Assembly: GCA_045650745.1 (NCBI GenBank) | Contig: JAZRRN010000048.1 | Location: 5,896-69,895, forward strand | DNA length: 64,000 bases | Direction: 5' to 3' | Source of the DNA: Candidatus Caccovivens sp. | Lineage (GTDB): Bacteria; Bacillota; Clostridia; Christensenellales; UBA1242 | Part shown: positions 1,965-26,998 of the stretch, one piece after another | How the letters are laid out: every line of letters starts with the position of its first letter | Position numbering within the stretch: position 1 is the first letter of the stretch | Made by a program: the position numbers and the translations under genes | Notes under the pieces: generated by a model | Told to the model about the DNA's origin: nothing | Database searches by the model: none | The model's input: only the letters and a program-made list of their open reading frames with translations

Positions 1965-4900
1965 TTAGCCAACAATTGTCAAACATTGTCCAAGCAATGC
2001 CGCTTGCTCTTCAGTGAAATCAGGGTTTCCTGATTGGGTGTTTTTGAAGGCAATCATCACATATCTAGTGTTTGCTTGAAGTGTGTGAGGAGTTGACAAC
2101 CAAGCTCCTGCACATGCCGCCTTTTGTTCTGCTGTCGCAGTCTCTTGTCTAGCATTAGGGAAACTCAAGGTTTGCTTAGACAGCACAGCACTTGAAAATT
2201 CCATCACTGCAAATTCCAAATTTGTAGAACCAAAAACTTCTTCCAAATTTTCAACAAATGCAAGTGTTTCGCCACCATTTACTGCAAGCACAGCAGTGAT
2301 GCAAGTTGCACGACCTGTCACTGTTGCCGCTGCAGGAGTAAATGCTGCACCCGCATAGCCTGGAGGTGCATATTCAGTGTTGAAAGTCATGTCTGAAATG
2401 TTTTCGACAATTTCCAATTCCTCTCCATAATAAGTTGCAACAGTTGGTGCTTCAGGTTCGACTGGCACTTCTGGTTCTTCAGGGATTTCTGGTTCTGCAA
2501 ATGTTACACAACTATTCAACAAAGCCAAATCTTCTGCAGAAAAATTTGCACTGCTGTCTGTTTCGTTTCTAAACAAAATCATAATGTATTGTGTTGCAGA
2601 ATTCAAAACATAATCCCCATCAACCCAACTTCCAGCAGTTGCACTGTTTGTGAAAGTTGAGGAGTCCATAGGAATACCTGCAAATTCATAAATAGTATAT
2701 TTCAATTGCACAGATGTTTTTCCTTGAACAAGTGTCAATTTTCTATTTGTTGCGTCAACCTTCAAAACTTGTGATTGTGAAGCAGCTCTGCCTGCTGTGT
2801 CTGTATAGGTCAACTGATTTCCACCAATTGACTTGCCAGCTGTGTATTCAACTTCTGCAAAATCTTCAACAATTGTCAATGTTTTGCCATTGAATGTTGT
2901 TGTTGGGATTGATGGATCAACTGGTGTTTCACCTTGTTCAGGATCTCCACCCTCACCTGGCTCTTCAGGTGTTGTGGTTGTTTCTGTCAATGCCAAGCAT
3001 TGTGCGAGCACTGCAACTTGATCTTCTGTAAAGTCAACAGAGCTATCACCATTTTTGAATGCAATAATCACATATTTTGTGTTTGCTTGCAATCTGTGTG
3101 CTGTTGTCAACCAAGCCTTGCCAACTGCAGCAGCCGAAACACTCTCTGTTGTGCTCAATGTCGCCATTGAAAGCGGAGCAGCAGAAAATTCGAGCACCGC
3201 AAATGACAAATTGGTTGAGCCAAACACTTCAGCCAAATTGTCAACAAATGCAAGTGTTTCGCCACCATTTACTGCAAGCACTTTTGTCATGCCTACAGCA
3301 CGACCTTTTGTTGCAGGAAAATCGCCACTTGCTGTGCCGGCAACACTATATCCGGCAGTGAAGTCAATGTCAGCAATCTCATCAACAACAGTCATATCTT
3401 TTTCTACTCTGCTAGATTGACCAGTGCCAGGCTCAACCACAAATTTTACTGTTGTTTCATCTTCGCCAGGTGTTGGATCTGTTGGTGTTTCGCCGCCTTC
3501 ACCTGGTTGTTCGCCAGAAGCATCACCAAAGTTTCCAACTTTGTTCCAGTTTCCAGATGTTTTCAAATAAATATCAAAATTTGCTGTGTTGAGATAAAAA
3601 TCTCCATCTTCGCCCAATGTTGACAAAGGTGCCCCTTCGCCAGAATGCCATTCTGCCCCTGAAACTGTTGTTTCTGGATAAATATCACTCTTTGTTGGAG
3701 CAAGTTTTCTGTTTTGAGCAAAGTCAAAATCTATGTCATATTCTGATGCAAATCTGCAAGCATCTTCAAACCAAGTTTTTCCTGCACCGAGTTCCGAACC
3801 TGTATAGAATTGCCATTCGTGTCCAAACAAAATGTAAGAAGAAATCGAATTTGCATAACTTGCACTTGTGTATCTTGCAACAAGTTCGTCATAAACATTG
3901 TCTTCTGTTGGCTTGTTGTATGTGTTTGCTGAAGAAAAATCTGACTTAAACCAATCTGTGCGAAGGTCAGTTGTCAAAAACACTAAGCCATTTTCGTAAT
4001 CAGTCACATGGTCGTTTGAATACATATATTGCATCAATTCTGTGTCAAAATAATATGAAAGTCTGCTGTCGTCTGCTGACAAGAAGCCGAGAGCCCCACA
4101 ATTTGCATCTCTCATACCTCTCAAAGCTTCCAAACTTCCTGCAAATGTGTGAAGTCTTGGGATTCTGTCAATGTTGAGATATGATCCTGTGATTCTTACC
4201 ACATTGTCAACAAAACTGTTCCAAGCATTTTTTCCTTGGTCATATGTAGAACTTCCAAATTGTGCACTGCTGCTTGTCGCATGCAAACCAATCTTAAGCC
4301 AATCTTTTGCGGCAAGAAACTCTGCTGCAAATTTGTTTGATACTCCTGAAATTGCATCGTTGTAAACATACAAACTAAATTTTGCACCATATTGTTCGTT
4401 CAATCCTTTGAGCCAAGCAAAGAATGGTTCGTCATACAAGCTTGTGTATGTTGCGGCTTTGTTTTTCAAGTTTTGAAAACAGTAAGTCACATCATCAAAA
4501 GAAATATGCATAAATTCTGCTTGGCTTGCTATGGGAGAGTCAGTGCCGTCAGCACCATCGTTTCCGTCTTTGCCATCAGCACCTTTGATGTTTCCAATCT
4601 TTGTCCAACTGCCAGATGTCTTTTGATAAATATCATAATTTACGGTGTTGAGATAGAAGTCTCCATCTGCTCCCAAGGTGTCACTTGGCACAACTGCACC
4701 ACTGTGCCATACTGAGCCATCTTTTCCAGCAGGGCCTTCTGGACCTTGTGGACCAGTTTCTCCAGTTTCACCCTTTTCGCCTTCTGGACCTTGTTCACCC
4801 TCTGGGCCTTGTGGACCTTCAGGACCTTGTGGGCCAGTTTCGCCTTCACCATCTTCGCCATGAAGGTTTGAAATCACAGCCCAGCCACTTTCTCCTCTAA

Positions 4901-5162
4901 ACCAAACATTGCCTGTGTCGGTTTCAAAATAATAGTCGCCCAAAACACCAATTGCACTTGTTGGATCAGCCTCTCCATTATACCAAGTTGAACCATTTGT
5001 TCCAGGAGCACCTGGAGCACCAGGATCGCCCTTTTCGCCAGCTCCACAACCTGCGAGCATGCCTACAGAACCTGCAAACATCGCCACACCAAGTGCTGCA
5101 CCGACAAGACCTTTTCTAAACACATTGAAAGGCACTTTCTTTTTGTTTTTGTCTTTTGCCAT
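1965..5162 (-). CDS. Collagen-like repeat surface lipoprotein with a central globular domain of unknown function and three C-terminal repeats of about 130 aa
   Basis: The ORF track starts at 5219, but that ATG lies at or within the predicted TSS region just downstream of the -10 box. The paralog-supported start is ATG 5162 ([18 protein letters not shown]...), preceded by AGGAG. The signal peptide ends in the lipobox LAGC. G-X-Y runs include [16 protein letters not shown] and [48 protein letters not shown]. The module W(Y/H)xG...GD(Y/F)Y(F/L)xT...W occurs three times. The central domain has the motif HISFDDV...LHATSS; it may be deacetylase/glycosidase-like, but this is unverified. The C-terminal repeats (..[12 protein letters not shown](D/E)N..) are separated by Pro/Glu-rich linkers. 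Confidence 0.85.
4716..4859 (-). repeat. Collagen-like G-X-Y triplet tract, 48 residues, coding
   Basis: In-frame [48 protein letters not shown]. The DNA shows a 9-nt periodic ggaccttgtgg-type repetition. Confidence 0.9.
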
Positions 5163-5223
5163 TTTTGTCTCCTTTTTCCTTCTTGATTTAGTATGCCAAA
5201 CAAAATCAATAATACTCATTTTG

Positions 5224-5253
5224 AGTATACCCCCCCCCGAAGCAAAAAGTCAA
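5224..5253 (-). promoter_or_regulatory. Promoter of the 1965..5162 gene, with a G9 tract in the spacer
   Basis: Minus strand: TTGACT (5253-5248), 18-nt spacer TTTTGCTTC+GGGGGGGGG, TATACT (5229-5224). It is nearly identical to the promoter at 7685-7714. Confidence 0.65.
5230..5238. repeat. Homopolymer C9 (plus strand) = G9 (minus strand) within the -35/-10 spacer
   Basis: Read directly: gagtata-ccccccccc-gaagc. Confidence 0.9.
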
Positions 5254-5256
5254 ACA

Positions 5257-5287
5257 ATTTGCAAACAAAAAAAAGAGTGAAAAGTTC
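5257..5287 (-). terminator. Terminator of the 5312..7621 gene
   Basis: GAGTGAA (5265-5271), 3-nt loop, TTCACTC (5275-5281), flanked by A and T runs. On the minus strand it is followed by T8. Confidence 0.75.
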
Positions 5288-5311
5288 ACTCTTTTTTGTT
5301 TTGATTGATTT

Positions 5312-7621
5312 TTACGCTTTGTAAATTGTCACATAACTTGCCAAATCAGCAGAATCTGTTGACTCAAAATCAAATGCTGCTTCGCTAACCTTTTTAAGTG
5401 CAAAACCATACCAACCAGATTCAGCAATCACAAAAGTTGTTGCATCCCAACCACCAGAAATAGAACTTCCTGTTGTGATTTCTGTTTCGCCAGTTTGTTT
5501 GTAAACAGCATAAGCATAATCAGCATTTGCTTTCACAATTGTTGTGCCTGCAGTCAAATATACATTTTTGACTGTTGAAGCTCTCTTGACATCCTCTTCA
5601 TAACCAGCTCCATATTTAGAGCCAGCTTCAAATGTCACTTCAAAAGTTTGGATTTCATTTACTTCGATAGAAATGTAATCAAGCAAATCATTGCTCATTG
5701 TCGAGAAGTTGAAATTGCTGTCATCTTTTGTAGCCAACACAAAACCATACCAACCTGGTGCTGTGATTAAATATTCCCCTTCATTATAACCACCTGTGAG
5801 GCTTGTAAGACCTTCAGTTACAGTGATTGTTTCTCCTGTTTGTGCATAAACTGCAAATTTAACAGCAGAATTCTTCACTGAAACAGTTGCAATACCATTG
5901 ATATAAATGTTTTTTGTTACAGTTGCTCTTCTTGTGTCTAAAAGCACATTGTCGGTTGTGCCAAATTTATTTCCGGTCACCAAGGCACTTTCTGCGACTT
6001 CGCCATCATCTTCACCTTCACCTGGTGTAGGATCTGTTGGTTCTTCCCCTTCTTCACCTTCGCCACCATCACCTGGTTCTTCTGGTGTTGAAGTTGGTGG
6101 AGTAATTGTCACATAATCATAAAACTCTTTGCTCATTGTCAAGAAGTTGAAATCACTGCCATCGTCCATAGACAACACAAAACCATACCAACCATCTTCT
6201 TGAATTTCAAATGTGTCTACAAAACCACCAGAAATGCTTGAAGATGCAGCAATCGCTTCGCCTGTTTGTGCATAAACTGCCAAGCCGTGCATAGCTGCAT
6301 TTTTTACAGAAACCACATCACCCTTTTTAAGTTGAGTGTTTTTGACTGTCGTTGCTCTTTTAAGGGTTGTCGCTGTCGTAGGGTCTGTTGAAAAAGCATT
6401 TCCTGCTTTGATTTCATATTCATATTGTGGAGCAACAACTTCTTCGTTGCCACTTCTAGCAAACAAATTGAGATGATATTTCATAATGTTTGCCATAAGT
6501 TTGTGTCCTTCTGCATTTGGATGCAAACCATCTGGCATATACATATTTTTGATTGATTCAACAATTGGGTTCAAACCACTGATTGAAAACATATCAATCA
6601 CAGGGATTGAATATCTTTCGCAAACTTCTTTCATTGCATCAACATAATCTTTCAATGTTTTGCCTGTTACTGGGTGTGCTTCATAGTCGTAATTCAAATC
6701 ATTTTTGTTTGTGTCTGCATTATATCTGTGAAGTGGAGTAACCACAACAATTCTGCTTGAAGGATATTTTTGTTGCAATGCTGGCAAAATCACATTCAAA
6801 GCACCATAGAAAGAAACATCTGTTGTGTCATCAATTGATCCAAGTGGAGTGCCATGTCCATAGTCGTTTGTGCCCATAAAAATTTGGATCAAATCTGCTT
6901 CTGGGATTGTTTGATATCTGTTGATAAGAGGACTGTTTCCGGTGCCATAATCACTTTTTACACTCCAGCAAGAGCCACCAACTCCCATGCCAACAACATT
7001 TGCAAAGCCAAGTTCTTCTGCCAAAATTTCCCAGTATTTTTGACCATCACAGCCACTTCCCTTTGTGATGCTGTCACCAACAAACACTGCAGTTTTTCCT
7101 ACCCAAGGGCTTTGATCAACAATTGTTACATCTCTGTCACCAGAAATTTCGCCCATTTTTGTCCAAACGCCATTTGTTTTTGTGTAAACAAAGTTTGTTG
7201 AGATGTCCAAATATGTGTCACCATTTTTTCCAACTGCTGCTGTAGGTTCTGTTGTGCCAGTAAGCCAAGACGCGCCATCTTTGCCATCTTCACCTGGGTC
7301 TCCTTCTGGACCTGTAATATTTGAAATGGCAGTCCAGCCTGATGCAAGTTTTACATAAATGCTTCCATCGTCAGTGTCAAAAAAGAAATCTCCTGCAACA
7401 CCTTGTGCTGGGTCGTATTGAGAGCCAGAATACCAAGTTGAGCCATTTGTTCCTGCTGGTCCTTGTTCTCCTTGTGGACCTTGTTGACCTTGTGGACCTG
7501 CTTGTCCACAACCTGCGAGACCAACGCCACCTGCAAGGATTGTTGCACCAAGCAATGCTCCTACAAAACCTTTCTTAAACACATTGAAAGGCACTTTCTT
7601 TTTGTTTTTGTCTTTTGCCAT
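5312..7621 (-). CDS. Collagen-like repeat surface lipoprotein fused to an SGNH/GDSL hydrolase (esterase) domain, with three C-terminal repeats of about 115 aa
   Basis: [22 protein letters not shown] lipobox. GXY tracts include GPQGQQGPQGEQGPAGTNG and GPEGDPGEDGKDG. SGNH blocks: VFVGDSITKGSG (I), GVGGS (II), FMGTNDYG (III), DGLHPNAEGH (V). Three repeats (..VKN..L..G..V.VKN...AVYAQTGE...GWYGFVL..) are separated by PE/G-rich linkers. Confidence 0.9.
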   Translation of the reverse strand: MAKDKNKKKVPFNVFKKGFVGALLGATILAGGVGLAGCGQAGPQGQQGPQGEQGPAGTNGSTWYSGSQYDPAQGVAGDFFFDTDDGSIYVKLASGWTAISNITGPEGDPGEDGKDGASWLTGTTEPTAAVGKNGDTYLDISTNFVYTKTNGVWTKMGEISGDRDVTIVDQSPWVGKTAVFVGDSITKGSGCDGQKYWEILAEELGFANVVGMGVGGSCWSVKSDYGTGNSPLINRYQTIPEADLIQIFMGTNDYGHGTPLGSIDDTTDVSFYGALNVILPALQQKYPSSRIVVVTPLHRYNADTNKNDLNYDYEAHPVTGKTLKDYVDAMKEVCERYSIPVIDMFSISGLNPIVESIKNMYMPDGLHPNAEGHKLMANIMKYHLNLFARSGNEEVVAPQYEYEIKAGNAFSTDPTTATTLKRATTVKNTQLKKGDVVSVKNAAMHGLAVYAQTGEAIAASSSISGGFVDTFEIQEDGWYGFVLSMDDGSDFNFLTMSKEFYDYVTITPPTSTPEEPGDGGEGEEGEEPTDPTPGEGEDDGEVAESALVTGNKFGTTDNVLLDTRRATVTKNIYINGIATVSVKNSAVKFAVYAQTGETITVTEGLTSLTGGYNEGEYLITAPGWYGFVLATKDDSNFNFSTMSNDLLDYISIEVNEIQTFEVTFEAGSKYGAGYEEDVKRASTVKNVYLTAGTTIVKANADYAYAVYKQTGETEITTGSSISGGWDATTFVIAESGWYGFALKKVSEAAFDFESTDSADLASYVTIYKA
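6467..7096 (-). other. SGNH/GDSL hydrolase domain within 5312..7621
   Basis: Residues about 176-385 carry the four conserved SGNH blocks (GDS-, G, GxND, DxxH). Confidence 0.8.
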
Positions 7622-7684
7622 TTTGTTCTCCTTTTTTTTTGTTTAATCTAGTATAACCTCGAAATTCAATTAATACTCACTTTG

Positions 7685-7714
7685 AGTATACCCCCCCCCG
7701 AAAGAAAAAGTCAA
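7685..7714 (-). promoter_or_regulatory. Promoter of the 5312..7621 gene, with a G9 tract in the spacer
   Basis: Minus strand: TTGACT (7714-7709), 18-nt spacer TTTTCTTTC+GGGGGGGGG, TATACT (7690-7685). Confidence 0.65.
7691..7699. repeat. Homopolymer C9 (plus strand) = G9 (minus strand) within the -35/-10 spacer
   Basis: Read directly: gagtata-ccccccccc-gaaag. Confidence 0.9.
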
Positions 7715-7742
7715 ACAAATTTGATGTGTTTGTTGACTTAAA

Positions 7743-7773
7743 CAAAAAAAACGAGAGCTAATATTTCTCCCGT
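7743..7773 (-). terminator. Terminator of the 7796..8764 gene
   Basis: Minus strand: ACGGGAG-AAATATTAG-CTCTCGT followed by T8. Confidence 0.65.
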
Positions 7774-7795
7774 TTTTGTTTAATTTTTTATACTT

Positions 7796-8764
7796 TTATG
7801 CATTTCCAATTCTGTCTCTGCTTGAAGTTGTGCCTGTTGTTGAAAGTGGTCTAATCGAATAAATTTGATTTCCTGTTGCGTGAATTTGTTTTTCGATGTC
7901 ACGATCATATTTAACACTTGCAACAAGACCTTGTGGACCATAAATGTCAAGTGTTTTCGCTCTGATAAAATTTTCGATCAAATCACAAGTTTTTCTTGCT
8001 TTGCCATATTCTCTTACCAACTTGTCTTCAAGTTTCCATGAGCAATATTCTGTGCCAGTTCTTGCTTCGGCAAGTTTATATTCCATATAAAACTTTGCTG
8101 GGCTGTGTGTAAGTTCGGCAAATGTCCAAATGTCAACTGGATTTTTTGTTTTTTCGTATCTTTCATAATATCCAACCATCGCTTGCTTGATTGCATTTGC
8201 ATAAGCACCACTGTTTACAAAGTTCATATACCAACAATATTGTCTTCTTGCATTTACGACATATTCTTTGAAATCTTCTTTTGAAAATCTTTCTGCCGTA
8301 AATGGATCCCAATATCTGCCATGATCTCTTTGATCAAGAAGTTCGTTGTATCTAACCCACAACCAGTCGAGTTGTTTGTTGAGTTTTTTCACCGAGTTGA
8401 TGTCATCATTGATAGCAACATTCATATAATCGTTGATGTGCAAAGAAGCAATCACAAGCCATTCTTCTGGAGTTTTTTTGCCTGATTTTGCTTCGATTTC
8501 TTTTGCTTTTGCAACAAGTTCTGGAAGCAATCTTTCCTTTTCTTCCATTTCCAAATACATTGCCAAACTTCTCAAATCGCCTCTTTGTGCAAGATAAATC
8601 AAATCTTCTCTAATCAAGTGCATTTTATATTCTTCACCCACATATCTCTTCTTTGCAAGACTTGCTAAATATGCCTTAACCTTTACAAAATTGTCAAAAT
8701 TTTCATCTCTTGCAAACTCTTGCAAATCCATATCGGCACAAACAAACTTTCCATCTACAAACAT
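7796..8764 (-). CDS. Hypothetical cytoplasmic protein, 322 aa, predominantly helical, no recognisable motif
   Basis: Long ORF with SD AAGGGGA 6 nt upstream of the ATG, its own promoter and its own terminator. No signal peptide. Confidence 0.7.
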   Translation of the reverse strand: MFVDGKFVCADMDLQEFARDENFDNFVKVKAYLASLAKKRYVGEEYKMHLIREDLIYLAQRGDLRSLAMYLEMEEKERLLPELVAKAKEIEAKSGKKTPEEWLVIASLHINDYMNVAINDDINSVKKLNKQLDWLWVRYNELLDQRDHGRYWDPFTAERFSKEDFKEYVVNARRQYCWYMNFVNSGAYANAIKQAMVGYYERYEKTKNPVDIWTFAELTHSPAKFYMEYKLAEARTGTEYCSWKLEDKLVREYGKARKTCDLIENFIRAKTLDIYGPQGLVASVKYDRDIEKQIHATGNQIYSIRPLSTTGTTSSRDRIGNA

Positions 8765-16675: not shown

Positions 16676-19600
16676 TTATTCTGCCTCAAAAACCTTTGCA
16701 AGTCCATACATTGATGCATACAAATTGTATGAGTTTGAAGATTCATCAGCGTTTGGTCTGATGTAAACAATGTTGCAATAATAGTTTGAATCTGTGGCAA
16801 GAGTAATTCTTCTTGTGATGATTGTCTTGATTTCGCCACCTTCCAATTCTACTTCACCACCTGTAAGATTTCCAGTTGATGAAACTTTCAATGTGCTTGA
16901 CGATTCTTCCTTGCCTTCGTTTGAAACCAAGTCATAAACATGCACTGTAGCTGAAATTGTAGAATCAGTCGATTCAACCGATTGTTCCATAACACCAACA
17001 TTCAAACCAACAACTGCACCTACGCCAGAGTCAATATCTGATGCATAGACATAAATAGATTGATTTGCAACAACATTGAAGTAGTTTCTGTTTCCGGTTG
17101 TTGCAGAAAGTGCAAACGAACCATTGTCAACAATGCAACCAACCAAACCACCAATGCCGGTTTCGTCCATTCTGTGTCCATAAAGGTTGAGTTTGCCCAT
17201 TTCAAGCACAATGTCCTTAAACACAACACGACCAGTTTTGTTGTTGATTGTGCCAACAATTCCACCTACATATTGGAATCCGGTAAATTCGCCAGAAACT
17301 TTGATGTTTGAAATTTCAGCAACTTCGTTGATTACGCCTGCAAAACCACCAAGGTTTTGAATTCCGTTTTGAGTACTTTGTGTGCTGACACTGATTGATT
17401 TTGAAATTGTCACATCGCTGACACTTCCACCACTGATCAATCCAGCAAAACCACCAATACCTTCAGCAGTAAACACTTGCTTGATGTTTGTAAATGCTTG
17501 ATCACTTCCGTGAACATTAACATTCTTCACAGTTCCTCTAGATTCGCCGGTAACAAAACCACCATATCCATAGGCACTGATGATCATGCTGTCATCAACC
17601 AAAACATCAATCTTTTCTGCTGTTGCACCACTGTCGATATATCCAAAGACAAGCCCAGCAGTATCTGCATAAACAGAAACCACTTCGTCAACTTTGATGT
17701 TGTAGATATAACCTCTTCCACTCAAAACGCCAACCAAAGATCCTGCGTAAGAGTATCTGCCCATATCTTCGCCATCAACAAATGCCGATCCACCAATGTT
17801 CCAGTTTCTTACAATAGCTCCCACTTGAGAGTAAAGATTTTGAATTTTATAATTTCCAACAGCAACACCGATGGCACCACCAACAATGTTGTTTCCTTCA
17901 ACATAAACTGCATCTGCACTGTCTCTGACAATGTCAACATTGACGATTGTTCCACCATCAAGTCTTCCTGTAAGAGCACCAACTGAATTTGCGTTTGCAA
18001 ATGAAACGCCCAATGGTTCGTAAGTAAAGTTCATCAAAGTTCCAACAGCGTCTGTCAAACCTGATCTTCCCACTTCTGCAAAAAGACCAGCATAGTTTAC
18101 AGATTCGCTGTCAACGAGTGTTACACCTGAAATCTTCATAAAGTTTCCTTCAAGGTAACCAACAAACTTTGTCTTAAACAATTGACTGTTTTCTGTGTAA
18201 CCTTCGTAAGTCACATCTGAAATCAAACGATAATAAGAATAGTTGAATCCAGCATTTGTGTTTTCTCTTGAGATATAAGTTTCCATTGTCTTGTAGTCAT
18301 TGATAAGGATTGGGTTGTAAACCGAACCCAAAGGTTGACTTGAAAGAGCATAAATGTAAACATATCTTGCAGAAGTTGCACCCTTGTCATCAACAATTGT
18401 TTCGATGCGATCCAATTGTCTTCTTGAATATGCAATGATGTTTGCAGAAACAAGTTCCAATCTGCCAGCATTGAATGTCGCAGAATTGAAGTTTGAATAA
18501 TCGGTGGTGTTGTTATTAAAGAACCAAACCGAATTGATATCTCTTCCTTCAACATAAACATAGTTTTTAAAGTTTTCCATGTTGCCAAATTCTGTACAAG
18601 ACAAAGGTTTGAGTCCTTCTGAATCTTCAAGGGCAATCTCCCCAATATTTTCGTTGAGCCCACTGTCTTGCAAATAATAACAGTCTTCAAGACTTCCTTG
18701 AATAGATCCCTTATAGTTTGTCCTTGCAAAACCATAGTTTGAAGTTTGGTCATTTTCCATAATGCAAGTTGAGAAGCATCTTGCAATATTTCCACCGTTT
18801 TCAAATACAAAGCCTGATGCATAAGTTCCGCTTTGCTTCAATTGAATGTTTGAATAACAATCTGCAACAGTGCCTTCGTTTGAATAAATAAATCCAGCAA
18901 GGCTGTTGCTTGATCTGATTTCGTTTTCAGATCGTTTGTTATAATACATACTGTCTGCACTTGGAGTTCCACTTACATAAGAAGTGAAAATTCTTCCTGA
19001 ATTTGTGTTTGTCACAACAAATCCTGCGGTGTATTCGGCAGTAGTTGTTGTTTCATTTCGCAAGCTTGCGCCCATATAATAAGAACTTGCAATTGTTCCG
19101 CTGTTTTCACCAACAAAACCAGCCAAGTTTACATTACTAAAGATGCTTACCTTGCTTCTTGAGTTTGTGATATAGCCATTGTTTTTGCCGACTAAACCAG
19201 CAACATAAGCAGAAGAGGCTTTTTCCGAACATACAACAGAAAGTGTTGAGTTGTTTGAAGCCTCAACCGAGCAGTTTGTGATGATGCCTTCGTTGCTTGC
19301 AGTCAACAACCCTACATCAAATGATCCTGCACCAGTTTTGAAAATTGTGTCACTTGTCATTCTGACTGTAACATTTTGCAAAATTGCATCACTTTCATTT
19401 GTTGCAAACACACCAATTTGTGTTGCTGAGCCAAAATCATAAGTGCCTGCAAATTGCAAAGAATAGCCATTTCCGTCAAGTCCAGCAATTCTTGCTGTAA
19501 GTGGAACAAATTGTTCTACATCATTGATTGCCGCATATTCCATGCTTGGCAAAACAATGTCGTTGAGCAAGATATACCACTCGCCATCTGCCATCTTTTC

Positions 19601-22600
19601 GATCAAATCGTTGTAGTCCTCAATTGGGATAGGACTGTCTTGTGTGCTTTGATCATGCACATCAAATTCGAAAACAGTATAAACTCTTTCAGCACCATCT
19701 CTTGTTGCGCTGTAAGTATAAACACCGTTTCTCATTGTGTAATAAGAATCCATTGAGAATGAATAAACATCACTTGTTTTTGAATTGTAAACTCTAAGTG
19801 GAGTTACAGTGTAACCAGCAATTTGATAATAGTCAGTTCTAATTTGAGAATCGCCTGACAAAACTGTGTCCTCGCCATTCATATAAACTGTCCATGTGAC
19901 ATTGCTTGACATTTCACCAACAAATGTGTCAACTTCGTTGCTTACGATTGGGTTTGATTTGTCATATTCAAGGAAGCTTCTGATTGAAAGTTGAAGTTCG
20001 TAAGGATTTCCGATTGCTGTTGAGATAACGCCATCAACCATGCCTCTTACAAGGTCGAGATAAACGCCTTCTTCATACACATAGTTAAACACATATTCCA
20101 TTACATACAAACGGATAGAATCTTCGCTTCTTACGGCTTCGCCATTGACAATCTTTTCGCCGATTGTCTTGATCATAATTTCTTTTCCAATTCCACCATC
20201 ATAAACAATGTTTTCTGATGTAACCGTCAAAACATATTTTGCACCAACTTTGTTGATTGAAACAATTTGACTTGCATCAGAAGGTTGTCCATTTGCGTCC
20301 AAGATTTGGATTTCAATTTGATCTGCTGTGTAACCATAATAGTTTAATGTCAAATCATAAGAAAGACCACGGGCAACATAATAATATCCACCAGCATCTT
20401 GCTTGTCGTCAAAAACAAGTTCGGCATAACTGCCAAGTTTTGTTGTCAAGTAAACTGGATAAGATTCAGCAAATTCGCCTCTATTTCCATAAGTTACAGA
20501 AACATTAAATCCAACAGCCACACCATCAGAAACATTCTTTGATGGCATGTTGTACATAATATAAACTTTTCCAACATAAGAAACTGAAACTGTGTTCAAG
20601 AACGAAATCATTTCGTCGTATGTGAAGCTAAATTTGCCATCTTTTTGACTTCCAAATGTGTCAACTCTGACAAATTCCAATTCGCTGCCAGCTTCTTGCT
20701 TTTCATAAACAAATGTAAACAATGCTTTTGCTGCATCTTTGCTTGAATTTTGTGACATATTTTCGATTGTAAATGTGTTGAACACTGCTTCAACAGGGTC
20801 AACAAACACTTCAATCAAACCGTTTTGTCCAGGAACAATGATGTCATCAACCACTGAAACATCATTGATGTTTGAATAGTTGTCTGCTGTGATATAGTTT
20901 ACGCCTGCTTCATCAAGGTTGAGTTCGACTGTTGCAAACACACCATCATAAAGCTCAGTCGCATAGAAGAAGATCACATATTTTCCAAAAATTCCTGTTT
21001 CAAATCTGTTTACAAACGCATCACTTGCAGAATTTACTCTAAGAGAATAGTCAAAAACATTAACCATTCCTGCTTTTCTTGCAAGAGTAACATTAAACAA
21101 ATCATCTGTAAGTGAAAGTGTGTTTACAAATGCTTGCCACTCTGCCTCAGAGTCACAATCATTGATGTTGTCAGGCATTCTTGATTGAACAAGCCTGTCT
21201 TCATCACCTTCTCTATAGAAGATTTCGTAGAACAAATATTCTTCATCATTTGTTGAGTCAACTGTCACTGTGTCAGTGTAAGGTTCGTTTGTTTTGATTG
21301 AAATTTCAACACTGTCTGGTCTGATCGCAGATGCTGTATCTTTGTAAACAACAGACAAATCAATTTCAGAAGCAGACAATTCGTAAACAAACAAATATGA
21401 TTGCTCGCCAATTGTCACAGAAACTTGCAACATAGGCACAAGTGTGTAAGAGTCAACAGCACCTTCAATCGCTTCTGCACTCTTATAGAAGATGATTGTT
21501 TGCTTGTTTACTTGCACTGATGAGAATGTTTTTACATTTTCGTCACAATCTGCAAACAATTGAGAGTTTCTTGTCAAATTGTATGCAACATTTTTGTATG
21601 ACAAAACCCCTTCTTTTGTGATCGAATATTTGTCATTTTCGCCAAGATATGTCGCAGTGTCATCAAGTGTGTATGTTGGCACCAAATAAATGTTTGTGTT
21701 TGAATTTCCATAAACTGAAACTTGACTTCCGTTTACAACATTCATTCCACTTGCGTTTCTGCTTGTGTAGAATACTGATCCTGCAACATCTTTGTCGAAG
21801 TAATTTGTAATATAAATATAAACTGTTTTAGATTCTACTCTATTCAAAATGCTTGTCAATGTCAAAGTTGCCAAACCAACGCCATGCGCGGTAATGTTTC
21901 CATGAATGTCAACTGACAACAATCCTGCTTTTTCTGCAGTCGAAATGTTTACATCTTGACTTGTGATTTTGATTGGATAGAAATCAGAGTTTGGAGAAAG
22001 TGTGTTGAGTGCCAAAACTTCATCTTGCACCACTCCGGTTGTCGAACCACTTACACGGTTGTCAACACCAAAATAATACATAAAGTAAACACTTACACCT
22101 TCAACCGAGCCGTTTGTCATAAGGTAAGGATTTCCAGCATCTTCACCAAGACCAACTTCTTTTGTTTCGAAGCACACTGTTTTGAAGATTTCATAAACAT
22201 TGCCCACTTTCTTGAGAGAAACAAGATCTCCATAATAGTGAGTTGTTGAAGTGTCTGAAGTAGAACCCAACGCTGTTGATGGGTTTACAATTCTCTTCAA
22301 ATACGAAACTGCTCTAAATGCCGAACCATAGCTTCTTCTTGTTTCGCTAGCATTTCCAACCATTCCATAAACGCCTGCAGCATCAAATGCAACTTGCTTA
22401 AATTTGATGAGCATTGCAGAATAAAGAGTGTTTCTGCCATCGTCAACTGCTTCAATATAGTTTCCAGAACCAAAGTTTACACGATATCTGTCATCAACTG
22501 ATGCGTCAACAAAGTCATAACCACAAATTGTTCCAACATAGTCATATCCTCTGACAAAGATACGAGAGTTGTTTGTCCAAATGTCAATTCTGTCAACATT

Positions 22601-25600
22601 TGCAGTGTGAGCATAACCTACCACACCACCAACATAATCTGTGTATCCTTTTTCAGCTGCTGTTTTTGAAACAATGTCTTGTGTTGAAATTTCGCCACCA
22701 ACAAGCATGCTCTTGATTGCGATGCCACTTTCAACTGTTTCTTCTGCCATAATTGGCATTGTTGTTTCAGCCAAATCTTGGTTGTAAATATAAGCAACCA
22801 TAGATTTTTGGTGAGTTCTTCTGCTGTAGTTGTTGTATGCCACAGCACCAGCAACACCACCCAAATAGATGTTTGAATAATCATTTTGCACTGTTTCGCC
22901 AGACACTTTGATAAGAGTGTATGCCGAATAAGCAGAATAACCATAAAGTTTGAGTTCTGTTGATGTTGTGCGTTCTACAAGGCCTGCAGTTGCACCAACA
23001 ACACCACCAGCAAACAAGTTTGTCGAATCTGCTTCAATTGTCAAATAATCGTTGAAATATGCAAGATTTTTTGCATTTTGTCCAGCAAATTTTGCACCAC
23101 TTTCATACAAAGTGAAATCTTGCAAAATTTGTCCGTAGTTTGCTGCAGCAACCGAACCAAAATAAACATTTGTGCTTGCTACTGTTTCAATGCTTGATGC
23201 AGCAACAATTCTTGTGCCAAGGTTTCTCACAATACCTTTGTTGATTGCAACAGCAAGGCCAACATAGGCACTTCTTTGAAGATCGAGATCAACCTTTCCT
23301 GTGATCAAAATGTTTTCAATCATTGGAGTTTCAATTTCGATAATGTTTCCTGTCACACCATCATAAACAATTTCGTTGAGTTGTGCAAACAAGCCAGCAT
23401 ATTGAACGCCATCGACTGTTTCCACAAAGTTTGCATTGTTTACAAAAAGGTTTGTGATTGAAGCTTGAGCAGTTGTGCCTGTAAGCGAACCACTAAAACC
23501 AACCAACACTTTGTTGCCTTCTCTTTCAAGGATACCAATTGGTGTTGCACCTGAAATTGCAGACATATCAATCACTGTGTTGAGCTCGTAATGACTCTTC
23601 AATGTTGTTTCATTTGCATTGATTGCCAAAATATCTTCTGGTTTTTCAAGCAAATAAGGATTGTTTCTAGATCCGTTTCTATAATGAACATCAATGCAAA
23701 GAGGTTTCTTTGTCAAAGAAGTATAGTTGCTGCCCCATTCTGCTGGATAAACATAAATTCTTCCTGTCAAAGACTCTTCAATGTTTACAATGTTTGCAAT
23801 GTTGTTTCTATAGAAGTTTTCACAAGAAATAAAAATTGTATAAGTGCCCTTTGATTGTTCTGAATAATCCACAACAATCTCAACCATATCGGTATAAGGG
23901 TTTCCGTTTGTCAATTCAAAGTCAACTCTCAATCTCTTGTTTGTCGCATCTGTTGGATATGTGTAAACACCCAAAGTATAAGACAATTTGTCGTTTGTAA
24001 AGTTGAGTTCGTCTATTGCTGTTGAAAGTGATATGCTTTCAATTGATTTGTATGGAGATGAAACAATCTTTGCATCATATCTCTTTGTCGAATTTCTTTG
24101 TCTGAGATTTGTGCTCAACACAAATGAATACGAACGCATATCTGTTGCAAAATATGTCAAAGTGTCAAGGTCAAAATAACCAAAACCACCAATGCTTCCA
24201 CCGAGATAATAGATGTTTGAGAATTCTACGGTATACAACGCCATAAGCGAGCCACCCTCATCTCTTTCTTCATAGATAAAATCTTCAGAACTAAACATCA
24301 TTCCGGTTTCAAATGTCACATAAACCATACGAGTTTCTTCGTGTGTTGTGCCATCTTGAATCCATTGTTTTGTGATTTCAACAGCTGTTGCTGTTTTGTC
24401 AAATGGTTGACCTTTGCTGTTTTGCACATAATAGTATACAAATTTTTGATCATATTCTTCTTCAACCAATTCAGAATAATAATCTGTGCTTACAGTTGTA
24501 TAGTTGTAGACAATGCTGCCATCTGGCAATTCAGAGTCAAAAGAGTTGTACATGTTTGGAATAGCTTTCTTGTCAAATTCGTATTTATAGAAGTTTGTTG
24601 ATTGTCGGTTGTTTGCCACAACATCAAACTTGACCGAACTGTCTTCTGTGCTTACTCCCGAACCATAATAAACAGTGTTGTTCAAGGCATAATCTTCGCC
24701 ATTCTTCAAATAATATTCGTCAACAAGTGAATAAGAACTAATCCTTGCATAATATGTAAGTTCTGTGTTCACCACCTTAAAATCATCTACTGTATTTCCC
24801 ATCAAGGTAAATGTGACATCTGTCACACCATTTTTAACAGTTGCAATTCTGTAAAAATCGTTTACTTTTGCCACTGTTGCAATGTTTACATCACCAGGGA
24901 TATATTTTACGCCTTCACCTGCCAAGTTTGCTGCAATCTTGATAAAGGCATAATTGTTGAAAGTGATTTCATCTTTTGTAGATGGGTTCAACACTTCAAT
25001 GTTTAACACATTTTCATATTCTGCTTCATATTTTGAATAAGAATAGTTTGAAACTGCCTCATTTCCTTCACTTGCCAAAGCAAAGGTTGTTGTTTCTGCT
25101 TTCAAAGTTTTTACAACTTCAAAATTTACATATCTTGACAAACCGTTGTCAAGGAAGATTTTGTAAACACCTTTACCAACTTTCTTTGGCACAACCTTCA
25201 TGTTAAGGAAAAATCCGTCAACACCTTCAACATAAGGATTTTCGTTGTCTGCAATGATTGTCACGACATCTTCGCCACCATCATGCTCGTATGAAATCCC
25301 TTGAAATCTGTGTTCTGCATAAAGTTGTTGATCAAACGCAACTTCTTCTGCGTCATAATCCACTTTCAAATATCTGTTTTCATCACCTGTGTAAGCATGA
25401 GCAATATTCAAATAGCTTGCACCTTCAACAACCGAGAAGTCAATTGCCAATGTCAATTCTTCTGCGTCTTGAATGATGTCGCTCACAAGGTGAATAACAA
25501 GTGTTGTTTTGTCTGTTTTTGGCGCTTTGTCAACACCTCTAACAAAAAATGGTCTATTCAAATCAGTGTAGAGCTTTGCGTTGCCGTTTACAACATTCAC

Positions 25601-26998
25601 TCTGTCACTTGTGATAATTTCCAAATAAGTTTCATCAAATTCAAACCAAATTCCATCGTAGTTTGCTGGAGAGTTGAGTCCTGACAAAACATTTACCCAA
25701 AGTTCGTTCCAGCCATATTCATCAAGTTTGTAACTGTTGTAAACCACCATTGGTTCTGGTTCGGAAGTTCCGTTTACTGTCACTTCAATTGGTGCAATTT
25801 TTACATCAAGTCTAAACCTTCTCAATGCGTTGACACTGTCATCTTGCACACCCTTTGCAACATTATAATAGATTTCAACATCAAAATAGTCTGTTGTTTG
25901 TGTTTGTGAGTTTTGTGAAACCAACCAATAGAAAGTTTCAAATTCGCCTTCATCAGCAACTTCCAAAGGTTCGATATTCACAAAGCCATTTTCAAGCAAA
26001 GGTTTGTAAGTGATGATTGATTCTTCTTCCAATTTGATGTTTGTTTCGATTTTCAAAACAAATTGTGTCATGTTTATATTGTTTGGCACGATTGAAATTG
26101 TGTTGTCTGTAAGTGGTTGATAGTCCACATCGCCAGTCACCGTGTCAACATATCCACCAGACACATCAATTTTGAGACTTGGCAACACATAAACATCTGA
26201 CAAACAATAAACAATTTTGTCATATGCAATGTTCCCTACCGAACATTCATAAACAGTAAGCATATTAAACTTGCTCACAAGGTCAACTTCTGCAAATGCA
26301 GATCCGTTTACACTTGCAAAAAGTTTGTTTTCGCCCGTATCTTCATCAGCAACAAGTTTCATTTTGTCAAAAGCAACAATGCTTCCATCAATGATAGATC
26401 CTGTTCCGTTTTTGAAGATCGCTTTGTCTGATTCAAGGTCAATTGAATCAAGATAGAATGTTGCATCCAAATCTGCGTTTGGTGTGAAATAATAATAGTT
26501 CAATTTGTCATAAGTCACAAAGTCACTATCAAATTCGACCAAAGCAGAAGTTGGTTGAAACATTGTGTCATTTGAAACATAGTTGATGTCATCTTTTGCG
26601 TCCATAGATTTTGCATATTGTTCTACAAAAATTGACACCGTGCAAGTCTTCATTCCATCAAAAGTTGAAACTGTAAGAGTTCCTTCGCCACCATTTGTTG
26701 CTGTGACAGTCACCCTTATTCTCGACTTGTCCATTTGTTGTTGTGTGTAAGTAAAGATTGAAGAATCTCTGTTTGAATCTTCTTCAATATGCACATAGTT
26801 GTCAAAACCATTTTGATATCCTTCGATTGTGAAGATAATATCCTCAGTTTGTCCAACTTCCAAGTTTACTGATTGACGATTGGCTGTGATGTGAATCTTG
26901 CTGTAGTCTACTCCACAACCAACAAAAAAGAAACCTGCAAACAAAAATGCAAATACACTACACAATGATATAATTATATTTCTTAAAGTTTTTGTCAT
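16676..26998 (-). CDS. Giant surface lipoprotein (3440 aa) built from beta-sandwich/Ig-like arrays alternating with GLUG-type beta-helix repeat modules
   Basis: Uninterrupted 10.3-kb ORF. N-terminus MTKTLRNIIISLCSVFAFLFAGFFFVGCG gives a signal peptide plus lipobox. There are many repeats of about 20-25 aa of the form (A/G)G(F/L/I)(V/A)G.N.G.I..(S/C)(Y/F), for example YVAGLVGKNNGYITNS, LAGFVGENSGTIASSY, AGFVVTNTNSGRIFTSY, AGFIYSNEGTVADCY, SGFVFENGGNIARCF. Modules open with NP(I/Y)xI...DGNGYSL-type entries. Confidence 0.9.
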   Translation of the reverse strand: MTKTLRNIIISLCSVFAFLFAGFFFVGCGVDYSKIHITANRQSVNLEVGQTEDIIFTIEGYQNGFDNYVHIEEDSNRDSSIFTYTQQQMDKSRIRVTVTATNGGEGTLTVSTFDGMKTCTVSIFVEQYAKSMDAKDDINYVSNDTMFQPTSALVEFDSDFVTYDKLNYYYFTPNADLDATFYLDSIDLESDKAIFKNGTGSIIDGSIVAFDKMKLVADEDTGENKLFASVNGSAFAEVDLVSKFNMLTVYECSVGNIAYDKIVYCLSDVYVLPSLKIDVSGGYVDTVTGDVDYQPLTDNTISIVPNNINMTQFVLKIETNIKLEEESIITYKPLLENGFVNIEPLEVADEGEFETFYWLVSQNSQTQTTDYFDVEIYYNVAKGVQDDSVNALRRFRLDVKIAPIEVTVNGTSEPEPMVVYNSYKLDEYGWNELWVNVLSGLNSPANYDGIWFEFDETYLEIITSDRVNVVNGNAKLYTDLNRPFFVRGVDKAPKTDKTTLVIHLVSDIIQDAEELTLAIDFSVVEGASYLNIAHAYTGDENRYLKVDYDAEEVAFDQQLYAEHRFQGISYEHDGGEDVVTIIADNENPYVEGVDGFFLNMKVVPKKVGKGVYKIFLDNGLSRYVNFEVVKTLKAETTTFALASEGNEAVSNYSYSKYEAEYENVLNIEVLNPSTKDEITFNNYAFIKIAANLAGEGVKYIPGDVNIATVAKVNDFYRIATVKNGVTDVTFTLMGNTVDDFKVVNTELTYYARISSYSLVDEYYLKNGEDYALNNTVYYGSGVSTEDSSVKFDVVANNRQSTNFYKYEFDKKAIPNMYNSFDSELPDGSIVYNYTTVSTDYYSELVEEEYDQKFVYYYVQNSKGQPFDKTATAVEITKQWIQDGTTHEETRMVYVTFETGMMFSSEDFIYEERDEGGSLMALYTVEFSNIYYLGGSIGGFGYFDLDTLTYFATDMRSYSFVLSTNLRQRNSTKRYDAKIVSSPYKSIESISLSTAIDELNFTNDKLSYTLGVYTYPTDATNKRLRVDFELTNGNPYTDMVEIVVDYSEQSKGTYTIFISCENFYRNNIANIVNIEESLTGRIYVYPAEWGSNYTSLTKKPLCIDVHYRNGSRNNPYLLEKPEDILAINANETTLKSHYELNTVIDMSAISGATPIGILEREGNKVLVGFSGSLTGTTAQASITNLFVNNANFVETVDGVQYAGLFAQLNEIVYDGVTGNIIEIETPMIENILITGKVDLDLQRSAYVGLAVAINKGIVRNLGTRIVAASSIETVASTNVYFGSVAAANYGQILQDFTLYESGAKFAGQNAKNLAYFNDYLTIEADSTNLFAGGVVGATAGLVERTTSTELKLYGYSAYSAYTLIKVSGETVQNDYSNIYLGGVAGAVAYNNYSRRTHQKSMVAYIYNQDLAETTMPIMAEETVESGIAIKSMLVGGEISTQDIVSKTAAEKGYTDYVGGVVGYAHTANVDRIDIWTNNSRIFVRGYDYVGTICGYDFVDASVDDRYRVNFGSGNYIEAVDDGRNTLYSAMLIKFKQVAFDAAGVYGMVGNASETRRSYGSAFRAVSYLKRIVNPSTALGSTSDTSTTHYYGDLVSLKKVGNVYEIFKTVCFETKEVGLGEDAGNPYLMTNGSVEGVSVYFMYYFGVDNRVSGSTTGVVQDEVLALNTLSPNSDFYPIKITSQDVNISTAEKAGLLSVDIHGNITAHGVGLATLTLTSILNRVESKTVYIYITNYFDKDVAGSVFYTSRNASGMNVVNGSQVSVYGNSNTNIYLVPTYTLDDTATYLGENDKYSITKEGVLSYKNVAYNLTRNSQLFADCDENVKTFSSVQVNKQTIIFYKSAEAIEGAVDSYTLVPMLQVSVTIGEQSYLFVYELSASEIDLSVVYKDTASAIRPDSVEISIKTNEPYTDTVTVDSTNDEEYLFYEIFYREGDEDRLVQSRMPDNINDCDSEAEWQAFVNTLSLTDDLFNVTLARKAGMVNVFDYSLRVNSASDAFVNRFETGIFGKYVIFFYATELYDGVFATVELNLDEAGVNYITADNYSNINDVSVVDDIIVPGQNGLIEVFVDPVEAVFNTFTIENMSQNSSKDAAKALFTFVYEKQEAGSELEFVRVDTFGSQKDGKFSFTYDEMISFLNTVSVSYVGKVYIMYNMPSKNVSDGVAVGFNVSVTYGNRGEFAESYPVYLTTKLGSYAELVFDDKQDAGGYYYVARGLSYDLTLNYYGYTADQIEIQILDANGQPSDASQIVSINKVGAKYVLTVTSENIVYDGGIGKEIMIKTIGEKIVNGEAVRSEDSIRLYVMEYVFNYVYEEGVYLDLVRGMVDGVISTAIGNPYELQLSIRSFLEYDKSNPIVSNEVDTFVGEMSSNVTWTVYMNGEDTVLSGDSQIRTDYYQIAGYTVTPLRVYNSKTSDVYSFSMDSYYTMRNGVYTYSATRDGAERVYTVFEFDVHDQSTQDSPIPIEDYNDLIEKMADGEWYILLNDIVLPSMEYAAINDVEQFVPLTARIAGLDGNGYSLQFAGTYDFGSATQIGVFATNESDAILQNVTVRMTSDTIFKTGAGSFDVGLLTASNEGIITNCSVEASNNSTLSVVCSEKASSAYVAGLVGKNNGYITNSRSKVSIFSNVNLAGFVGENSGTIASSYYMGASLRNETTTTAEYTAGFVVTNTNSGRIFTSYVSGTPSADSMYYNKRSENEIRSSNSLAGFIYSNEGTVADCYSNIQLKQSGTYASGFVFENGGNIARCFSTCIMENDQTSNYGFARTNYKGSIQGSLEDCYYLQDSGLNENIGEIALEDSEGLKPLSCTEFGNMENFKNYVYVEGRDINSVWFFNNNTTDYSNFNSATFNAGRLELVSANIIAYSRRQLDRIETIVDDKGATSARYVYIYALSSQPLGSVYNPILINDYKTMETYISRENTNAGFNYSYYRLISDVTYEGYTENSQLFKTKFVGYLEGNFMKISGVTLVDSESVNYAGLFAEVGRSGLTDAVGTLMNFTYEPLGVSFANANSVGALTGRLDGGTIVNVDIVRDSADAVYVEGNNIVGGAIGVAVGNYKIQNLYSQVGAIVRNWNIGGSAFVDGEDMGRYSYAGSLVGVLSGRGYIYNIKVDEVVSVYADTAGLVFGYIDSGATAEKIDVLVDDSMIISAYGYGGFVTGESRGTVKNVNVHGSDQAFTNIKQVFTAEGIGGFAGLISGGSVSDVTISKSISVSTQSTQNGIQNLGGFAGVINEVAEISNIKVSGEFTGFQYVGGIVGTINNKTGRVVFKDIVLEMGKLNLYGHRMDETGIGGLVGCIVDNGSFALSATTGNRNYFNVVANQSIYVYASDIDSGVGAVVGLNVGVMEQSVESTDSTISATVHVYDLVSNEGKEESSSTLKVSSTGNLTGGEVELEGGEIKTIITRRITLATDSNYYCNIVYIRPNADESSNSYNLYASMYGLAKVFEAE
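18771..19200 (-). repeat. Example block of GLUG-like repeats (coding) inside the 3440-aa gene
   Basis: Translates to AYVAGLVGKNNGYITNSRSKVSIFSNVNLAGFVGENSGTIASSYY...AGFVVTNTNSGRIFTSYVSG...LAGFIYSNEGTVADCYSNI...ASGFVFENGGNIARCFSTC. Confidence 0.7.

Follow-up and report, generated by a model that had tools for sequence, protein, structure and literature searches.

Poly-G Tracts in the Promoter Spacers of a Collagen-Like Lipoprotein Family of Uncultured Clostridia: Candidate Contingency Promoters

The Two Lipoprotein Genes and Their Promoters

The stretch of DNA analyzed here (64 kb of contig JAZRRN010000048.1 from Candidatus Caccovivens sp., called the window in what follows) carries on its minus strand two lipoprotein genes, each of them preceded by a predicted promoter in which an uninterrupted run of nine G residues occupies the part of the spacer next to the -10 hexamer. 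These G tracts, and the possibility that they make the strength of the promoters adjustable, are the subject of the present analysis.

The first gene encodes a protein of 769 amino acids (aa) whose lysine-rich signal peptide ends in the lipobox LAGC. The protein has short Gly-X-Y stretches, three repeat domains at the C-terminus and an SGNH/GDSL hydrolase domain (Pfam, E = 7e-22), which has a phage tail-associated lysin among its relatives in the PDB; the orthologues of the protein range from 757 to 774 aa. The second gene encodes a collagen-like protein of 1065 aa, which has the same type of N-terminus with a LAGC lipobox, a match to Pfam Collagen and a different, unannotated cargo domain. 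The start of this gene is placed at the ATG at 5162, because the longer open reading frame (ORF) that begins at 5219 has no ribosome-binding site (RBS) and starts inside a palindrome that is described below. Judging by the signal peptide and lipobox, the collagen-like repeats and the SGNH hydrolase domain, both lipoproteins are predicted to be exposed on the cell surface. Their Gly-X-Y stretches are encoded by tandem arrays of 9 and 18 nucleotides (nt) located at 4767–4832, 5002–5025 and 7457–7499, and these arrays could vary the size of the collagen-like stalk.

On the minus strand, the promoter of the 769-aa gene (promoter 2, 7714–7685) reads TTGACT-TTTTCTTTC-GGGGGGGGG-TATACT and that of the 1065-aa gene (promoter 1, 5253–5224) reads TTGACT-TTTTGCTTC-GGGGGGGGG-TATACT, where GGGGGGGGG is G9 and the spacer measures 18 bp in both. 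The initial annotation of this DNA had described one and the same promoter at the two genes, with 9 nt and G9 between identical hexamers, and the sequence bears this out. The promoters are predicted from consensus and position. In a consensus scan both G9 sites match 10 of the 12 hexamer positions, which is the top score between 4900 and 8000 and is shared there with a single intragenic site (6142–6113); upstream of the two lipoprotein genes, the scan found no 10/12 site other than the G9 pair. The complete 30-nt promoter pattern occurs twice in the window, compared with no occurrence in 100 dinucleotide-preserving shuffles, and an AAGGAG RBS followed by an ATG lies 61–63 nt downstream of each site. 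Terminator hairpins precede both promoters (Table 1), and the one upstream of promoter 2 is predicted to insulate it against read-through.

Table 1. Features of the two lipoprotein genes and their promoters in the window.
Feature	Position	Strand	Basis or remark
Promoter 2, -35 hexamer TTGACT	7709..7714	minus	sequence, consensus scan
Promoter 2, G9 homopolymer, 3' half of the 18-bp spacer, adjoining the -10	7691..7699	minus	proposed slippage tract
Promoter 2, -10 hexamer TATACT	7685..7690	minus	sequence, consensus scan
Perfect 17-bp palindrome ATACTCA-AAG-TGAGTAT	7673..7689	minus	spans the -10 and predicted +1 of promoter 2
769-aa lipoprotein gene	CDS 7621-5312; RBS AAGGAG 7633-7628	minus	
Promoter 1, -35 hexamer TTGACT	5248..5253	minus	sequence, consensus scan
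Promoter 1, G9 homopolymer in the spacer, adjoining the -10	5230..5238	minus	homopolymer census
Promoter 1, -10 hexamer TATACT	5224..5229	minus	sequence, consensus scan
Perfect palindrome ATACTCA-AAA-TGAGTAT	5212..5228	minus	spans the -10 and +1 of promoter 1
1065-aa collagen-like lipoprotein gene	CDS 5162-1965; RBS AAGGAG 5174-5169	minus	
Terminator hairpin and T-run of the upstream 322-aa gene (7796-8764)	7744..7780	minus	inverted repeat, 14-nt arms
Bidirectional terminator hairpin	5264..5302	minus	between the stop of the 769-aa gene and promoter 1
CDS, coding sequence.

A Shared 5' Cassette

The 5' regions of the two genes (5100–5260 compared with 7560–7720) match almost completely over the stretch that begins 4 nt before the -35 hexamer and reaches about +20. 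They differ in the middle part of the untranslated region (UTR), and the first 66 coding nt are again 100% identical. It follows that the two tracts are copies of one cassette and not two independent occurrences. The initial annotation had taken their common functional position as an argument against chance; this argument is weak for sites that arose by duplication of one cassette, and the case against chance rests instead on the relatives of the locus.

Paralogues with different cargo are similarly alike in other lineages: their first 42 aa are 98% identical in one pair (P0005/P0124) and 100% in another (P0019/P0128). For the window pair, the identity of the N-terminus is 79%, and across lineages it is only 40–60%. 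In addition, the GDSL gene of one relative (L002, 730–900) carries the UTR type of the other gene of the window. Taken together, these observations indicate that the 5' cassette evolves in concert or is exchanged, and the pattern of sequence identity suggests that the unit of promoter and signal peptide is subject to gene conversion or exchange between paralogues.

Conservation and Length of the Tract Among Relatives

Exact look-ups of the window proteins, and that of protein P0009, returned no record, and hence there was no second assembly of the same strain for comparison. The relatives are contigs of other assemblies that were reached through protein-similarity homologues of the 769-aa protein, with the exception of L007, which was reached through the palindrome pattern. 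The tract thus played no part in the choice of the loci. The Logan contigs derive from the runs SRR13978221, SRR12711124 and SRR14556636, and the further sources are the runs underlying ERZ27297562, ERZ27317815, ERZ28593694 and ERZ28633639, and the assembly GCA_054286035.1. A scan of GTDB genomes with the palindrome pattern gave 28 matches, among which L007 alone is a relative, and the genome of the window is not itself a species representative; L007 belongs to ‘Clostridia bacterium RGIG3948’, a GTDB representative from roe-deer cecum (JAFTMH01) in the same genus as the window, and it shares 91.7% nt identity with the window over 7.1 kb that include part of rpoC. The neighborhood of one relative holds SpoIIR, SipL and YpeB, which identifies the hosts as spore-forming Firmicutes. 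The genes of the family lie in differing chromosomal contexts (after UDG, FtsW, SbcC, PheT, a Na/Ca exchanger or the 322-aa gene), so the promoter travels with the gene.

Two other scans yielded no relatives. In JGI metagenomes, the tract-free pattern TTTGAC-N12-26-TATACTCAAANTGAGTAT had two matches, both unrelated, and in IMG/VR the pattern TTGAC-N7-TTC-G8 had a single match, a G10 run in the coding region of an unrelated phage. This last tract (L042, 510–519) lies inside an ORF at 460–837 that has no relation to the lipoprotein family, and it may be prone to frameshifts.

Every homologous locus has an uninterrupted G run adjoining the -10 hexamer of a TTGAC(A/T)...TAnnnT promoter, or else the contig ends at the tract. 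The comparison of tract lengths across related genomes had been proposed beforehand in the initial annotation, and it turned out that the length is not invariant, so that the comparison does not refute the proposed switch: in nine independent promoters the tract is G8, G9 or G10, the rest of the spacer measures 6 or 9 nt and the whole spacer 16–19 bp (Table 2). In this count L036 and L037 are represented by L035, because their DNA is 100% identical over 9–18 kb.

Table 2. Promoters of the lipoprotein family in which the G tract is read through.
Promoter	-35	Non-G part of spacer (nt)	Tract	-10	Spacer (bp)
Window 7714	TTGACT	9	G9	TATACT	18
Window 5253	TTGACT	9	G9	TATACT	18
L002	TTGACT	9	G9	TATACT	18
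L007	TTGACA	9	G10	TATACT	19
L034	TTGACA	9	G10	TAAGAT	19
L038	TTGACA	9	G9	TAAGAT	18
L041	TTGACA	9	G9	TAAGAT	18
L039	TTGACA	9	G8	TAGTAT	17
L035	TTGACA	6	G10	TAAACT	16

Close relatives differ by exactly one G, as seen between the window and L007 and between L034 and L041 (89.5% nt identity), and these comparisons are at the level of species rather than of strains. In eight of the nine promoters the part of the spacer outside the run measures 9 nt, which means that the length of the spacer shifts without compensation. An alignment of the subfamilies leaves just a few non-coding columns unchanged, namely TTTGAC, eight Gs, the pattern T-A-n-n-n-T and the start region; divergence has affected the UTR, the DNA upstream and the half of the spacer that is not G. 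No substitution is found at any of the approximately 85 G positions of the nine promoters. The G run is therefore as invariant as the hexamers while its flanks have diverged, which is the mark of purifying selection on the run.

Another way of looking at this invariance is to take the tract for a fixed part of the promoter that does no switching, either a stiff stretch of poly(dG)·poly(dC) beside the -10 that resists melting, or the site of a dedicated regulator. In such a case the G block would set the strength or the responsiveness of the promoter (for example, to supercoiling or temperature), and lengths of 8 to 10 would represent slow, tolerated drift. The idea has several points in its favor, given that the tract always adjoins the -10, always has its Gs on the non-template strand and is preceded by TTC in eight of the nine promoters, that G9 is the commonest length, and that the run is conserved as strictly as the hexamers, as a binding site would be. 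Yet spacers that range from 16 to 19 bp without compensation are not expected of a binding site or a structural block, the family alignment contains no other conserved upstream motif that would point to an activator, and a run of G8–10 slips whatever its other role may be. On balance, a purely fixed element is considered unlikely, although it is the most serious of the alternatives, and the distribution of G/C runs outside these promoters (see below) also bears on it.

The Gs next to the -10 could, alternatively, belong to the recognition sequence of an alternative sigma factor of the sigma-B type, whose consensus is GTTTAA-N12-15-GGGTAT and for which they would supply the GGG. All nine promoters do read GGGTAT or GGGTAA at the junction of tract and -10, in agreement with GGG(A/T)A(A/T), and their -35 region reads (G/A)TTTGA. 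The distance from (G/A)TTTGA to GGGTAW, however, is 16–18 nt in every promoter except L035, where it is 15 nt, against 12–15 in the consensus; three Gs would be sufficient, which leaves an uninterrupted run of 8–10 without explanation; and the TTGACA and TAnnnT hexamers at 16–19 bp fit sigma-A throughout. An alternative sigma factor is thus very improbable.

G/C Runs Elsewhere and Contig Ends at the Tract

The initial annotation had stated that the two tracts are the sole G/C homopolymers of 8 nt or more in the 64 kb. The homopolymer census agrees and goes further: in the window (37.6% G+C) they are the only G or C runs of at least 6, the next longest being 5, while base composition predicts 0.05 runs of at least 9 and 5.7 runs of at least 6. 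The same pattern holds in a non-redundant set of 165 kb that comprises the window and eight related loci. Nine G/C runs of at least 8 are observed in this set, compared with 0.3–0.5 expected, and outside the lipoprotein promoters there is no run of at least 6, compared with approximately 10 expected from mononucleotide or first-order Markov models. Runs of at least 5 are also depleted (25 observed against 59 expected). Runs that are avoided elsewhere and strictly retained at one regulatory position form the pattern that is expected of a locus kept for its mutability. With regard to the fixed element considered above, the absence of other G/C runs of at least 6 indicates that such runs carry a cost through their mutability, which counts against it.

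Three public contigs (two from Logan and one NCBI metagenome-assembled genome, MAG) break off at the tract: L033 opens on G7-TATACT, L040 opens on G8-TAGTAT, and L001 begins one base past it. Apart from this end, L040 has the same sequence (100% identity) as L039, in which the tract is read through. These ends raise the question of a sequencing or assembly artefact, since poly-G artefacts of two-colour Illumina chemistry are common at the ends of reads. Nevertheless, seven independent assemblies from different pipelines have the run in an internal position, with conserved sequence to its left and right. A related proposal is that transcription starts inside the G run and is reiterative, but upstream of the tract there is no -10-like hexamer that would place the start site within it. 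An explanation of either kind is extremely improbable, the least probable of those considered here. G tracts of this sort fragment short-read assemblies of these genomes, and can part genes from their promoters in MAGs.

A Spacer Probably Set by Slippage

Four observations form the starting point for an interpretation: the anatomy of the promoters, the conservation of the tract, its varying length among the relatives and the depletion of G/C runs outside these promoters. Read from the sequence, the element is probably a sigma-A-type promoter in which a slippage-prone G run sets the length of the spacer and, with it, the strength of the promoter. Each gene would be driven by one promoter of the housekeeping type (sigma-A/sigma-70), half of whose spacer is the uninterrupted G run, with transcription starting at the predicted +1. 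Slipped-strand mispairing during replication would, within a population, add a G to the run or remove one, and this would alter the length of the spacer (here 17, 18 or 19 bp) and, with it, the way in which the two hexamers are rotated against each other. In the group with 9 nt of non-G spacer, G8 would give the canonical 17 bp, G9 would give 18 bp, usually still active, and G10 would give 19 bp, usually weak. The strength of the promoter would rise or fall accordingly, in a manner that is heritable yet reversible.

Since the two genes of the window have separate tracts, four combinations of expression are possible, and a population could be a mixture of cells that display different combinations of two lipid-anchored, collagen-stalked surface enzymes. 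The benefit, we infer, would be bet-hedging, and the selective agent may be phage, antibody from the host or the cost that the enzymes impose.

Several points weigh against this interpretation. A spacer of 18 bp is usually still active, and the effect may be graded and not of the on/off kind. Switching of a G8–10 run in a mismatch-repair-proficient Firmicute may be as slow as about 1e-6 to 1e-5, by our own estimate from the mutation-accumulation literature. The commonest state, G9 with an 18-bp spacer (five of the nine promoters), could be a preferred fixed length. L035–L037, which have an identical protein and are all G10, are uninformative because of their 100% identical DNA, and the one-G differences between assemblies might in principle be consensus errors. 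Finally, the three contig ends at the tract would be indirect evidence of varying length within a population, yet Illumina errors can break contigs at poly-G as well, so that breaks are no proof of heterogeneity, and the break of L001, one base past the tract, fits a sequencing error better than a length polymorphism.

The initial annotation had proposed that the tracts are phase-variable switches of two surface lipoproteins. Its reading of a sigma-70-type promoter, of a G tract that sets the spacer and of surface lipoprotein genes as the targets stands; as for how sharp the switch would be, a volume control that switches at a modest rate and a sharp on/off switch are equally likely.

The Palindrome Over the -10 and +1

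A second element overlaps the promoter. The palindrome ATACTCA-AAR-TGAGTAT is kept in six sequences (the two of the window, L001, L002, L007 and L033), whose UTRs otherwise diverge; approximately 35 nt downstream of it, ATACTA forms a third invariant element. A second promoter at this downstream ATACTA was considered and rejected, as it has no acceptable -35 and no TG extension. An explanation of the palindrome in terms of RNA structure was dropped as well, because the 5' UTRs of the window fold no better than shuffled sequences (z about 0), and scans of the window with Rfam and for tRNA gave no matches. The folding result makes a DNA operator for a dimeric repressor seem likelier than an RNA hairpin, and the palindrome is a candidate operator that would probably add ordinary repressor control to the promoter. 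Distant subfamilies have other palindromes in their UTRs, such as GTGTCAAAATTTGACAC in L041 (z = -2.5).

The palindrome motif also occurs in an unrelated Clostridia MAG (L020, approximately 3540–3600), where two copies, ATACTCAnnnnGAGTA, lie between divergent genes for a CI/LexA-like repressor (helix-turn-helix and S24 peptidase, 242 aa) and for a Cro-like helix-turn-helix protein (77 aa). The arrangement is that of a prophage immunity region and shows the motif to be of the kind that dimers of XRE-type helix-turn-helix proteins bind.

Instead of being primarily a slippage switch, the G block next to the -10 could also be a dedicated cis-element of ancient conservation, a rigid poly(dG)·poly(dC) stretch that RNA polymerase itself or some other factor would read and that would act jointly with the palindrome. 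It would then define an undescribed class of promoter, belonging to a cassette of promoter and signal peptide that moves among surface-enzyme genes of uncultured gut Clostridia. This is judged quite unlikely, more so than the fixed element discussed above.

Comparison With Known Systems

Control of a promoter through the length of a homopolymer in its spacer is best compared with three systems, and for two of the genes concerned, porA and tp0126, experiments have established the principle. The porA gene of Neisseria meningitidis, for which van der Ende is said to have given the details of poly-G spacer control in 1995, offers the first. According to a passage in PMC7864442, a poly-G tract between the -35 and the -10 of porA sets the level of transcription, with an optimum at 17 bp. 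The element described here is like that of porA in being a G homopolymer within the spacer of a sigma-70-type promoter of a surface-protein gene. It is unlike it in that porA is a single porin gene of a Gram-negative pathogen, whereas here the genes code for lipoprotein enzymes of an uncultured, spore-forming gut Clostridium, and the tract adjoins the -10.

In Treponema pallidum, tp0126 has a poly-G tract between the -35 and the -10 and is transcribed best with a spacer of 17 bp, and in the tprL promoter 9 Gs are the commonest length, with minorities of 8, 10 and 11 within isolates (PMC7864442). The likeness extends to the family level, given that in tp0126 and tpr (E, G, J, L) tracts of about 7–11 Gs lie in the promoters of a paralogous family of surface proteins. 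However, T. pallidum is a spirochaete, the proteins concerned are outer-membrane proteins, and the tract of tprE/G/J/L lies upstream of the transcription start site and not strictly in the spacer. The treponemal cases have, moreover, been validated by fragment analysis and green fluorescent protein reporters, whereas the element described here is a prediction from sequence.

The third system is that of the variable lipoproteins (Vlp) of Mycoplasma hyorhinis (PMC4198240). As in Vlp, several lipoprotein genes have a common promoter, 5' UTR and signal-peptide block, each has a homopolymer of its own, and expression would be combinatorial. The Vlp spacer homopolymer, reportedly described by Citti and Wise in 1995, is said to be poly-A; here it is poly-G, there are two genes per locus and the hosts are walled, spore-forming Clostridia and not Mollicutes. 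In searches of the two proteins against Pfam and NCBIfam, only SGNH/GDSL and collagen-type matches were obtained and no homology to Vlp was found. The element thus works like Vlp in the logic of its gene family, but does not belong to the Vlp family.

Among collagen-like surface proteins of Firmicutes, SclB/Scl2 of Streptococcus pyogenes is also switched by a short repeat. That repeat (CAAAA), however, is intragenic and acts on translation, and Scl2 is anchored through LPXTG and is not a lipoprotein. The NCBIfam models of Scl give weak matches to the Gly-X-Y region only, and since their scores are far below the curated cut-off, the proteins described here are not members of the Scl family. A G tract whose slippage turns a surface structure of a Gram-positive gut commensal on and off has been described for the pilus of Bifidobacterium breve (PMC9187656), but in that case, which concerns an Actinobacterium, the tract lies inside a gene and works through frameshifts.

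In the literature that was searched, phase variation by homopolymers is reported from Neisseria, Campylobacter, Helicobacter, Bordetella, Treponema, Mycobacterium, Bifidobacterium and Mycoplasma, and from Clostridia and gut Firmicutes invertible promoters are reported, the form in which phase variation of gut Firmicutes has almost entirely been described. The same search found no repeat-driven promoter switch in Clostridia and no description of the present element. Within the class Clostridia, this could quite possibly be the first case of repeat-based contingency promoters that selection maintains throughout a family, a system that is Vlp-like but in a walled spore-former, although this broader proposal is put forward more tentatively than the mechanism itself. 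The mechanism is that of textbooks; what is notable is its conservation throughout a family, the Vlp-like cassette and the contrast with the avoidance of G/C runs genome-wide.

If the interpretation is correct, a family of lipid-anchored, collagen-stalked esterases in uncultured Clostridia of ruminant and other animal guts is under the control of homopolymer contingency promoters, which these organisms have retained over a long divergence while purging G/C runs elsewhere. The signature TTGACA-N9-G8-10-TAnnnT upstream of the conserved signal peptide would then locate variable surface proteins in MAGs, there would be a concrete reason for the assembly breaks at these loci, and the tracts would provide a testable handle on the pressure that phage or immunoglobulin A exerts on these organisms.

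Other Features of the Window

Away from the lipoprotein genes, the minus strand of the window contains two giant ORFs that have no Pfam match, one at 16676–26998 (3440 aa) and the other at 44630–63967 (at least 6445 aa, as it runs off the window). They flank a gene at 27040–29739 that codes for a P-loop ATPase similar to TraG/VirD4/HerA.

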